This document shows positions 32,409 to 33,461 of a stretch of 64,000 bases of DNA, in pieces. This DNA comes from Anaerovorax odorimutans (GTDB lineage Bacteria > Bacillota > Clostridia > Peptostreptococcales > JAAYPU01): positions 25,501 to 89,500 of the forward strand of contig JAENZQ010000003.1 of NCBI GenBank assembly GCA_016841185.1, read 5' to 3'. A program made the translations under genes and the position numbers. The notes under the pieces were generated by a model. The model did no database searches, had not been told where the DNA came from, and was given only the letters and a program-made list of their open reading frames with translations. Every line of letters starts with the position of its first letter. The first letter of the stretch is position 1.

Positions 32409-33461
32409 TTATAATAATTGTAGTAATGGATTTGCAAATAAAAGGACAAGGGCAATAATCAGCCCGTATATTCCCGTTGTCTGTGCAACTGCTTGTCCAA
32501 GTATCATAGTCTTAACAACTTCTGCCTGAAGTCTTGGCCTAAGTCCAACAGCTTCTGTTCCTTTACCTGCGGCATAGCCCTGTCCCAATCCGGGCCCAAT
32601 TCCGCTAATCATTGCAAAACCTGCCCCAAGAGCGGATGCAGCTAGAATGATGGTTGCACCTTCTAAAGTTACCAACGGATTTGCATACATGAGCAGTAAA
32701 GCAATAACCAGTGAAAATACTCCTGAAGTTTGTGCGATGGCAGAACCCAAAAGCATTACCAGCGTGGCACCTCTGGAACTTTCCGGATTTATGCCTACTG
32801 CTTCAGCCGCTTTTCCCGCAGCGTATCCCTGTCCTACTCCGGGCCCTACGCCTGCGATCATTGCAAGGCCGGCAGCAATTGCAGAAGCAGCTAATATCAG
32901 TTGATGTCCCTCGATGGTTGCCAATGGATTTGCATACATGAGTAACAGCGCAATGACAAGGGAAAAAATTCCTGATGTCTGGGCAACAGCAGATCCAAGA
33001 AGCATTACCAGCATAGAGGATTTAGAAGCTTCAGGATTTTTACTGGATGCTTCACAGCCTTTTCCTGCAGCATAGCCTTGTCCAATACCCGGCCCGATGC
33101 CTGCTATCATCGAAAGTCCTGCACCTATTGCAGATGCTGCAAGCACCAACTTATCTCCATCGAGATTAATCAACGGGTTTCCAAACAAAAGAATCAATGC
33201 AATTACAAGTGATAAAATACCTGATGTTTCTGCTATCCCTGCCCCAAGAAGCATGACCATTATAGATTGCTTTGATTCCTTTGGATTATCACCTGTTACT
33301 TCAGCTCCTATTCCGGCAGCATAGCCCTGTCCTACACCGGGTCCGATACCGGCAATCATGGCTAATCCCGCGCCTATGGCTGAAAAAGCTAAAATAAGAG
33401 CTTTTTTATCAAAAGATAGAAGCCAGTTGATAAAAGCGGTAAAAAAATCTGTATATTCCAT
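32409..33461 (-). CDS. Fused four-hairpin (8-TM) Fo c-subunit paralogue with a single ion-binding carboxylate
   Basis: 350 aa, made of about 20 N-terminal aa plus four tandem 83-aa c-subunit hairpins. The carboxylate position is E78 (gaa at 33228-33230), then Q161 (cag at 32979-32981), Q244 and Q327. A strong RBS (AGGAGGTGG) precedes the ATG. The gene lies between atpB and atpE. Confidence 0.85.
32412..33410 (-). repeat. In-frame fourfold tandem duplication (about 249-bp unit) inside the c4 gene
   Basis: Protein periodicity is exactly 83 aa between equivalent residues (78, 161, 244, 327). The units have diverged at the DNA level, so this is an old duplication rather than an assembly-level perfect repeat. 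Confidence 0.8.

Follow-up and report, generated by a model that had tools for sequence, protein, structure and literature searches.

The ion/ATP ratio is a central bioenergetic parameter for life at the thermodynamic limit, and it is tuned by c-ring size, which ranges from 8 to 17 subunits. Tuning by null hairpins, which lack an ion site, is to our knowledge represented so far by a single bacterial F-type case, that of Acetobacterium woodii, and is predicted for Clostridium aceticum. The A. woodii ring consists of nine one-hairpin subunits and one V-type subunit, c1, that has a single site (PMC9171764); the second hairpin of c1 has lost its carboxylate, which makes ion binding there impossible, and the operon is laid out as atpI-B-E-F-H-A-G-D-C (PMC7911925). 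The A. woodii enzyme has an ATP-synthesis threshold of 90 mV, compared with 120–150 mV for those of P. modestum and E. coli (PMC9171764). In Na+-translocating c-rings, the ligands of the ion come from two hairpins, with Gln32 and Glu65 in one and Ser/Thr66 in its neighbor (PMC2359735). Here we describe a gene from Anaerovorax odorimutans that encodes a 350-amino-acid c subunit with four hairpins, for which we use the working name c4, and in which three of the four ion sites are replaced by glutamine. It lies in a stretch of 64,000 nucleotides (assembly GCA_016841185.1, contig JAENZQ010000003.1, positions 25,501 to 89,500), referred to below as the window, whose first letter is position 1. As we argue here, c4 is probably a structural rotor subunit in an F1Fo ATP synthase that is coupled to Na+, an enlarged A. 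woodii c1 that would form one block in an 11-hairpin ring.

The c4 gene, its hairpins and its operon

The gene is read on the minus strand and comprises an N-terminal extension followed by four units, in which we distinguish three types of hairpin (A, M and Z):

32409..33461, minus strand: c4 gene, c1-like four-hairpin c subunit of 350 aa; open frame with four PF00137 stretches
33469..33474, minus strand: Shine-Dalgarno sequence AGGAGG, 7 nt 5' of the c4 ATG, read from the sequence
33408..33461, minus strand: N-terminal extension, residues 1–18; signature of the c1-like family, without counterpart in atpE
33159..33407, minus strand: hairpin 1 (type A), residues 19–101; GIGPGVGQG, loop DNPK, IAETSGIL, end GNPL
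32910..33158, minus strand: hairpin 2 (type M), residues 102–184; GIGPGIGQG, loop KNPE, VAQTSGIF, end ANPL
32661..32909, minus strand: hairpin 3 (type M), residues 185–267; GVGPGVGQG, loop INPE, IAQTSGVF, end ANPL
32412..32660, minus strand: hairpin 4 (type Z), residues 268–350; GIGPGLGQG, loop LRPR, VAQTTGIY, end ANPL

Pfam recognizes ATP-synt_C (PF00137) in four stretches of the protein (2.9e-50; 168.8 bits against a cut-off of 24), and comparison of the protein with itself gives a sole peak, at a lag of 83 aa, where 62% of positions are identical against 6–16% at other lags between 70 and 99. The initial annotation, made from the letters and their open reading frames (ORFs), had proposed an ORF with a strong ribosome-binding site between atpB and an 88-aa atpE, encoding about 20 extra N-terminal residues and four hairpins at an exact 83-aa period. 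This description stands: there are 350 open codons behind the AGGAGG sequence, and the extra residues are residues 1–18, which match the extension of c1. It was also right that the GxGxGxGxG motif of helix 1 is found in all four hairpins, that the Tyr of the Na+ motif survives in hairpin 4 alone (the helix-2 motifs end in IL, IF, VF and IY), and that the RQPE loop is retained only partially, as LRPR in hairpin 4, the other loops being DNPK, KNPE and INPE. Two of its generalizations were too broad, as the conserved NP of the loop holds for hairpins 1–3 but is RP in hairpin 4, and helix 2 ends in ANPL in hairpins 2–4 but in GNPL in hairpin 1.

Its central claim, that the carboxylate is confined to hairpin 1, is borne out by the codons read directly. 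E78 (GAA, 33228–33230) is the sole carboxylate, with Q45 in helix 1 and T79 also present, and its place is taken by Gln161 in hairpin 2 (CAG, 32979–32981), Gln244 in hairpin 3 (CAA, 32730–32732) and Gln327 in hairpin 4 (CAG, 32481–32483). This E-Q-Q-Q pattern departs from the usual criterion for a c subunit, which is a carboxylate in helix 2 of each hairpin. Among the Na+ ligands of hairpin 1, Q, E and T are kept, but there is a Leu at the position of Tyr70, where A. woodii c1 has Phe. The product of the neighboring atpE has the full Na+ motif Q..VAETTGIY (Q32, V63, E65, T66, T67, Y70) together with the RQPE loop. An AlphaFold2 model of c4, based on an alignment of 25 sequences, has a predicted local distance difference test score (pLDDT) of 93.4 and a predicted template modeling score (pTM) of 0.89; it contains eight long helices of transmembrane length and a short extra helix at residues 6–15, within the N-terminal extension.

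The four units are 54–75% identical to one another in amino acids, 57–71% in DNA and 35–48% at third codon positions, and by these values they are old paralogues, with hairpins 2 and 3 the closest pair (75% aa, 71% nt). Tandem Repeats Finder detected no 249-nt tandem array at 32000–33600, and a repeat that is detectable at the protein level only argues against an assembly artifact. Orthologues in two independent metagenome-assembled genomes (MAGs) from GTDB, at 96% and 92% identity, have the same 350-aa frame, the same E-Q-Q-Q pattern and the same 88-aa atpE next downstream, and the frame and pattern are also found in an independent assembly at 83% identity. When c4 is compared with the two orthologues (Nei-Gojobori), the ratio of nonsynonymous to synonymous substitution rates (dN/dS) is 0.02–0.08 for each hairpin taken separately, at dS values of 0.6–1.2, and 0.037–0.058 for the whole gene, with 0–0.03 for atpE. 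All four c4 hairpins are under strong purifying selection, similar to that on atpE. The codons of Gln161 and Gln327, which are CAG in the window, are CAA in both orthologues, and this synonymous change indicates that Gln itself is selected rather than being a misread Glu. Doubts about frameshifts or miscalled Glu codons, which had accompanied the initial annotation, are removed by these comparisons. Two other possibilities were considered and discarded: a pseudogene is excluded by dN/dS and the codon evidence, and internal translation starts that would yield separate hairpins are excluded by the absence of Met at the unit boundaries.

The gene sits in a complete F-type operon on the minus strand, in the order atpZ-I-B-c4-E-F-H-A-G-D-C, 32 nt 3' of atpB and 37 nt 5' of atpE, and strong AGGAGG ribosome-binding sites precede both c4 and atpE. 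The order from atpF to atpC matches the Pfam-labeled gene order of related loci. The other features of the operon are:

34995..35022, minus strand: best sigma-70-like promoter match 5' of the operon, TTTACA / 16 nt spacer / TATAAT, 11/12; consensus match only
34729..34956, minus strand: atpZ-like small membrane protein (ATPase_gene1), the operon's first gene; PF09527, 6.6e-16
34311..34709, minus strand: atpI, assembly factor; PF03899, 2.5e-14
33494..34351, minus strand: atpB, the ring's stator partner (a subunit), with the conserved FRLFGN arginine motif; PF00119, 2.5e-55
32105..32371, minus strand: atpE, 88-aa single-hairpin c subunit; PF00137, 3.5e-19
31557–32069, minus strand: atpF, from ORF and translation
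31027–31569, minus strand: atpH, from ORF and translation
29492–31015, minus strand: atpA, from ORF and translation
28587–29462, minus strand: atpG, from ORF and translation
27170–28561, minus strand: atpD, from ORF and translation
26726–27139, minus strand: atpC, from ORF and translation
26677..26719: palindromic terminator-like stem of 20 pairs just 3' of atpC, from a consensus scan only

Promoter-like sites in the region are no more numerous than in shuffled sequence. The longest ORF of atpB, of 285 aa, shares 41 nt with the end of atpI, and its N-terminus is unusual in being rich in Asn and Tyr. Because of this overlap, and because the homologue at a Marinisporobacter MAG locus (L005) starts at the equivalent position, the true start is probably an internal Met (METNFGPK...), which would give a protein of about 233 aa.

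Relatives of c4 and the origin of its hairpins

The closest solved relative of c4, by both sequence and fold, is the protein that the initial annotation had named as precedent. In a phmmer search of PDB sequences, the top match is A. woodii c1 (4BEM chain J, 182 aa; 3.3e-59), followed by A. woodii c2 and the c subunits of Ilyobacter tartaricus and Fusobacterium nucleatum. Foldseek likewise places 4BEM_J first for the c4 model (E 1.3e-11, target TM-score 0.87), with single F-type c hairpins and then V-type proteolipids among the later matches, and the solved chains span no more than about half of the model. Residues 1–101 of c4 align to residues 11–100 of c1, and this includes the N-terminal extension, which aligns to c1 residues 11–21 (VIQFLSQFDPV); its consensus, ME.TNFI..F..WL.SFD, is kept across the listed relatives with two to six hairpins and is missing from single-hairpin atpE. 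Hairpin 4 corresponds to the second of the two hairpins in A. woodii c1. By these alignments, the window protein is a c1 homologue with two additional hairpins, and its description as a c1-like, site-depleted, multi-hairpin F-type c subunit is upheld. The single-hairpin product of atpE is 86% identical to A. woodii c2, its closest solved relatives being the c subunits of 4BEM, 1YCE and 3ZK1, and in the PDB sequence table 4BEM contains nine c2 chains and one of c1. Among NCBIfam models, NF005521 (F0F1 subunit C) scores 263.9 bits against a cut-off of 122. An affiliation with V/A-type subunits was considered and rejected, as the V-type K models fall well short of their cut-offs (NF004913, 82.8 bits against 211), identity to V-type proteins is 23–26%, and the operon is F-type.

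A word-indexed family search (E <= 1e-10) returned 593 proteins, and site patterns were counted in the 120 best matches, all of which have more than one hairpin, with lengths of about 198, 265, 350, 436–458 and 530 aa. With one letter for the site residue of each hairpin, the patterns among these 120 are:

EQ: 7 clusters
EQQ: 23 clusters
EEQ: 11 clusters
EQQQ: 16 clusters
EQEQ: 15 clusters
EQQQQ: 14 clusters
EQEEQ: 2 clusters
EQEQEQ: 1 cluster
AAQ, without any carboxylate: 3 clusters

An exhaustive search of 50%-identity representatives added about 90 clusters with two to five hairpins and varied patterns, as well as giants of 524–1042 aa. Judged by these matches, c4 is no singleton but a member of a family with several hundred database proteins of two to six hairpins. 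Among the named carriers are Crassaminicella indica, Alkalibaculum sporogenes, Alkalibacter rhizosphaerae, Clostridiaceae bacterium 35-E11 and Eubacteriaceae bacterium ES3, and further ones are Marinisporobacter, MAGs labeled Syntrophomonadaceae (L006, L007) and a MAG from the Soudan mine. Alkalibaculum sporogenes M08DMB has a 346-aa protein of the EQQQ pattern (WP_425481537.1), Crassaminicella indica and Clostridiaceae bacterium 35-E11 have EQQ forms, and Eubacteriaceae bacterium ES3 has an EQEQ form. The search for long atpE paralogues elsewhere that had been suggested at the outset yields such genes, with up to six hairpins, in the atp operons of the loci examined. In the window and 11 related loci, atpB is followed by the multi-hairpin gene and this in turn by a single-hairpin atpE, and wherever the sequence of this downstream atpE was read it carries the Na+ motif. 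The related loci with this order are:

L001, L002: four-hairpin loci
L003, L004: three-hairpin loci
L006, L007: two-hairpin loci
L016: five-hairpin locus
L017: six-hairpin locus
L018: Desulfarculaceae-type locus
L019, L020: carboxylate-free AAQ loci (L020 from soda-lake sediment)

The initial annotation was aware of no bacterial F-type c subunit with four hairpins and a single site. We found no description of an F-type c subunit with more than two hairpins in the searchable literature, where the only F-type precedents are the two-hairpin c1 proteins of A. woodii and C. aceticum, although an earlier mention of longer c1 homologues is possible; as a protein, however, c4 has several hundred relatives. 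NCBIfam has no dedicated model for multi-hairpin c subunits, and they clear the cut-offs of the generic 'F0F1 ATP synthase subunit C' models because their repeats are summed, so that the feature is hidden in annotation.

Several members of the family differ from c4 in ways that touch on the number and arrangement of sites. Two proteins that are 76–78% identical to c4 (P0009, P0010) have the same A-M-M-Z arrangement but a Glu in hairpin 3 (EQEQ), and the difference from the EQQQ of c4 indicates a labile site number even between closely related proteins. A three-hairpin c1-like protein with Ala, Ala and Gln at its sites (P0099; L019 6001–6810, L020 2556–3365) also has its helix-1 Gln replaced by Ile in hairpin 1 and by Met in hairpin 2 and retains the N-terminal extension; its gene has atpB on one side and a Na+-motif atpE on the other, in F-type operons of which one comes from soda-lake sediment, and the protein would be a pure 'spacer' subunit. 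The Marinisporobacter MAG locus L005 (5872–6804, 8570–9499) has three kinds of c gene: a three-hairpin EQQ gene upstream of atpZ-I-B, and a two-hairpin EQ gene and atpE inside the operon. Such an arrangement would permit a regulated rotor composition. A distant clade at 35–38% identity, from Desulfarculaceae-type genomes (P0074–P0120), has proteins of four, five and six hairpins (324, 405 and 486 aa) with the patterns EQQE, EQQQE and EQQQQE, and in helix 1 of the end hairpins a Glu occupies the Gln32 position; at L018 (8001–8975), the one locus of this clade that was examined, the gene is flanked by atpB and an 82-aa atpE within a cluster of Fo genes only. Finally, giant c-like proteins (P0157, 1042 aa; P0163, 968; P0199, 784; P0183, 524; P0267, 447) have from 5 to 11 or more hairpins with a Glu in each (LPETQALY or LVESAAIY), and may be monomeric or near-monomeric rotors of the kind found in Methanopyrus kandleri.

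As to the origin of the extra hairpins, we relied on tables of nearest-neighbor identity, since category averages are uninformative when the 'middle' hairpins mix two types. Hairpin 1 of c4 is 90% identical to the first hairpin of three-hairpin relatives and 81% to that of two-hairpin relatives, and hairpin 4 is 81% and 79% identical, respectively, to their last hairpins. Hairpins 2 and 3 best match the middle hairpin of three-hairpin proteins (82% and 81%), and when compared with two-hairpin proteins they are nearer to the first, Glu-bearing hairpin (72–74%) than to the Gln hairpin. The simplest history that we infer is one in which the extra hairpins derive from a duplicated first hairpin, such that A-Z would have given rise to A-A'-Z, then, by replacement of Glu with Gln, to A-M-Z, and then to A-M-M-Z. 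The A-A'-Z stage would be represented by the EEQ proteins, of which there are 11 clusters. More broadly, hairpin number seems to have grown in two ways, one in which the null M hairpin is multiplied internally, A-M(n)-Z, and another in which the whole A-Z unit is duplicated in tandem, (A-Z)n.

A proposed place in the rotor and its alternatives

If c4 is an expanded c1, it would fold into four consecutive hairpins that fill four adjacent positions in a ring otherwise made of the atpE product. Hairpin 1 alone (Q45/E78/T79) would form a Na+ site, whereas hairpins 2–4, neutral by virtue of Gln, would move past the a-subunit arginine with no uptake or release of an ion. The rings of 4BEM, 1YCE and 3ZK1 presumably have 11 hairpins each, with which the PDB chain counts are consistent, and in an 11-hairpin ring with one copy of c4 (c4 + 7 c) there would be 8 Na+ per turn, or 2.67 Na+/ATP instead of 3.67, and one ion-free sector with about 131° between consecutive sites across the null block. 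The lower ion/ATP ratio would yield more ATP per pumped ion at low phosphorylation potential and, in the hydrolysis direction, a steeper Na+ gradient per ATP. At phosphorylation potentials of 30–40 kJ/mol, the computed requirement is at least 117–155 mV for 8 sites as opposed to 85–113 mV for 11. We infer incorporation into the ring, a single copy per ring, a ring of 11 hairpins, coupling to Na+ and a physiological benefit. With respect to low driving forces, the A. woodii hybrid enzyme and that of Eubacterium callanderi, which has a V-type c, synthesize ATP at 87–90 mV (PMC9171764). In the fused c10 of Bacillus PS3, double E56D mutants show higher activity if the two changes fall in neighboring hairpins (PMC8809890), and this tolerance would provide a reason for natural null sites to lie side by side in one polypeptide.

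There are nevertheless points that speak against this assignment. A single E56Q substitution in the fused PS3 c10, which is H+-coupled, abolishes ATP synthesis (PMC8809890), and three consecutive Gln sites would therefore pose a real kinetic problem. The sector of 131° would be larger than one 120° catalytic step and would have to be crossed without ion-driven torque, and neither the ratchet models of Fo torque nor the PS3 data obviously allow an ion-free sector of more than 120°. The ATPase of Sporomusa ovata has the Q..ET motif yet shows no stimulation by Na+ (PMC9430772), and the motif is thus no guarantee of Na+ dependence. It must also be borne in mind that incorporation, copy number and ring size would all be extrapolations from A. 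woodii. Finally, the RQPE motif, through which the c-ring contacts the F1 stalk subunits gamma and epsilon, is present in atpE and missing from the cytoplasmic loops of c4 hairpins 1–3, which makes docking of the stalk on the c4 sector uncertain.

The kinetic problem would vanish if the enzyme worked mainly in reverse, as a V-type-like, ATP-driven pump that extrudes Na+ and in which the null hairpins raise the Na+ gradient that can be sustained. In hydrolysis, it would be the torque of F1 that drives the ion-free sector, which would then be harmless, and for this reason a mainly pumping role is a live alternative, albeit one we regard as unlikely. At 2.67 Na+/ATP, 40–50 kJ/mol would sustain 155–194 mV, compared with 113–141 mV for 11 sites, and a number of carriers have alkaliphile-type names or are of marine, soda-lake or deep-mine origin (Alkalibaculum, Alkalibacter, Marinisporobacter, L006/L007, L020, the Soudan mine MAG). 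The classical view is also that the loss of sites converts a synthase to a pump, but the A. woodii hybrid and E. callanderi enzymes make ATP at low thresholds (both PMC9171764). Furthermore, the window encodes a Na+-pumping decarboxylase, the obvious consumer of whose gradient is this ATP synthase, and no second ATPase is visible within the 64-kb window. In Propionigenium, a Na+ gradient made by a decarboxylase is consumed by the ATP synthase.

Somewhat less probable still is that c4 is part of the ring at a different stoichiometry, be it with two or more copies (for example 2 c4 + 3 c, giving 5 sites), in a ring of another size, in a ring of c4 only, or in a ratio to atpE that is adjusted to growth. 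Nothing in the sequence fixes the copy number, and the strong AGGAGG sites on both c4 and atpE would accord with such a reading, as would the three-hairpin gene outside the operon at L005, which would allow separate regulation, and the difference between EQQQ and EQEQ among relatives at 76–78% identity. On the other hand, there is exactly one c1 per A. woodii ring (4BEM chain counts; PMC9171764), and even at a phosphorylation potential of 30 kJ/mol the minimum would be 187 mV for a ring with 5 sites and 311 mV for one with 3, a demand that renders such rings implausible for ATP synthesis. Rings of c4 only are hard to reconcile with the single-hairpin atpE that is kept beside the multi-hairpin gene in all loci examined. 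One might also speculate that the conserved N-terminal helix could restrict the ring to one copy.

We think it improbable that c4 acts outside the mature rotor, either by templating or chaperoning the assembly of the atpE ring or in a membrane function unrelated to ATP synthase. Four hairpins covalently linked into an arc could determine how the ring curves as it assembles, and the loops of hairpins 1–3 lack RQPE, the motif that contacts the F1 stalk. Deletion of c1 in A. woodii reportedly leaves an enzyme that is assembled but unstable. However, the homologous c1 is integral to the ring in the crystal structure 4BEM, and the eight helices of c4, including the outer ones that would face the a subunit or lipid, are selected as strongly as atpE. 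The position between atpB and atpE is kept in two distant clades (35–38% identity), one Clostridia-type and the other Desulfarculaceae-type, and the operon already encodes a separate assembly factor, atpI. That the ORF is an artifact or a decaying gene (a misassembled repeat, fused atpE genes, or Glu misread as Gln) can practically be dismissed even though tandem-repeat genes assemble badly and the source is a metagenome-type assembly, given repeats diverged to 57–71% DNA identity with no array found by Tandem Repeats Finder, the recurrence of frame and pattern in independent assemblies (96%, 92% and 83% identity), a dN/dS of 0.04–0.06, Gln codons that vary synonymously, the lack of Met between units, and an EQQQ pattern common to 16 protein clusters among the 120 best matches.

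Returning to c4 as a rotor subunit, it is possible, though we would not call it probable, that the family as a whole constitutes a stepwise gearbox. Null hairpins gathered in one spacer would set the Na+/ATP ratio (3.33, 3.0, 2.67 or 2.33) at constant ring size, with the fused subunit bearing one to four null hairpins and one three-hairpin form being wholly siteless, and the ring encoded in the window would be the one with a silent sector of ~131°. The N-terminal helix and the non-RQPE loops would fix both the single copy and its register, and the angular register of the silent sector would thereby be set relative to gamma and epsilon, and hence to the catalytic cycle of F1.

A selected subunit with three consecutive null hairpins, together with a graded series of two to six hairpins, suggests a second and much wider range over which the ion/ATP ratio can be tuned. 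If this is true, it becomes testable how Fo gets across a long sector in which ions supply no torque, what sets the stoichiometry of the ring and the order of its subunits, and whether the loss of sites turns a synthase into a pump. Cultured carriers exist, among them Alkalibaculum sporogenes, Crassaminicella indica, Alkalibacter rhizosphaerae, Clostridiaceae bacterium 35-E11 and Eubacteriaceae bacterium ES3. As all such proteins are annotated 'ATP synthase F0 subunit C', calculations of ATP yield for these anaerobes may be wrong.

Neighboring genes and comparison with known rotor subunits

Elsewhere in the window are genes that fit a Na+ economy, all on the minus strand (1792–2922, 3846–5387, 5579–7253, 16680–17933 and 44906–46057). 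Their products are the beta subunit of a Na+-translocating decarboxylase (OAD_beta, 2.5e-163) and a carboxyltransferase, the two subunits of a fumarate hydratase, a Na+:dicarboxylate symporter, and an exchanger of the Na+/H+ type. Taken together, these genes point to a Na+ cycle driven by decarboxylation, as in Propionigenium, and small ORFs between 2922 and 3846 could be the gamma/delta or biotin-carrier subunits. Directly 3' of atpC is a BrxC/BrxD-like ATPase (25137–26408, minus strand; PF10923, 2.3e-86). At 38214–41490 (minus strand), adjoining a gene for MTHFR, is one for a 792-aa MetH-like protein with homocysteine S-methyltransferase, pterin-binding and B12-binding domains, in which the Pfam scan found no C-terminal reactivation domain. 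An ORF of 1630 aa at 47615–52507 (plus strand) has only a weak cytidylyltransferase-like match (5.6e-06), and neither the 424-aa ORF that comes after it (52509–53783, plus strand) nor a 473-aa ORF at 62271–63692 (minus strand) has a Pfam match.

Among described rotor subunits, the A. woodii c1 is the one most like c4. Both have the N-terminal extension, a first hairpin with the Q..ET site and an NP loop, and a last hairpin with Gln in place of Glu, an RP loop and AQTTGIY, and in both cases the gene sits after atpB and before Na+-motif single-hairpin genes (PMC7911925). They differ in having two and four hairpins, 182 and 350 aa, and one as opposed to three consecutive null positions, as c4 alone has two Gln hairpins of the distinct M type inserted between its c1-like ends. 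They differ also in how they are known, as A. woodii c1 has been seen in a crystallized ring (4BEM) whereas c4 is known here from its gene alone. The C. aceticum c1, the equivalent of the A. woodii protein, is likewise a two-hairpin subunit.

The V-type proteolipids (Enterococcus hirae NtpK, 2BL2; the eukaryotic c, c' and c'') share with c4 the idea of a lowered ion/ATP ratio, having four transmembrane helices and one carboxylate, or one site per two hairpins. Their fold matches two hairpins of c4 only (target TM-score 0.7–0.8, at 23–26% identity), and they belong to V1Vo enzymes, whereas the window is without V-type genes. The archaeal A-type c/K subunits resemble c4 in that hairpins have been multiplied within a polypeptide and sites have sometimes been lost (PMC2359735, PMC9171764). 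That of Methanocaldococcus jannaschii has three hairpins, and that of Methanopyrus kandleri has 13 hairpins in 1021 aa with the ion site retained in each (PMC2359735); c subunits of the Pyrococcus or E. callanderi type have two hairpins and one site (PMC9171764). Unlike c4, which adjoins a separate single-hairpin atpE, the archaeal A1Ao operons encode one kind of c each, and none of the archaeal A-type c subunits has been reported to have three consecutive null hairpins. Engineered fusions, the c2 and c3 of E. coli and the single-chain c10 of Bacillus PS3, demonstrate that linked hairpins can form working F-type rings, as we propose for c4. These, however, are artificial and H+-coupled, and in the PS3 ring one E56Q is enough to abolish ATP synthesis (PMC8809890), whereas in the natural family between one and four hairpins with Gln, or even with Ala, are retained by purifying selection.

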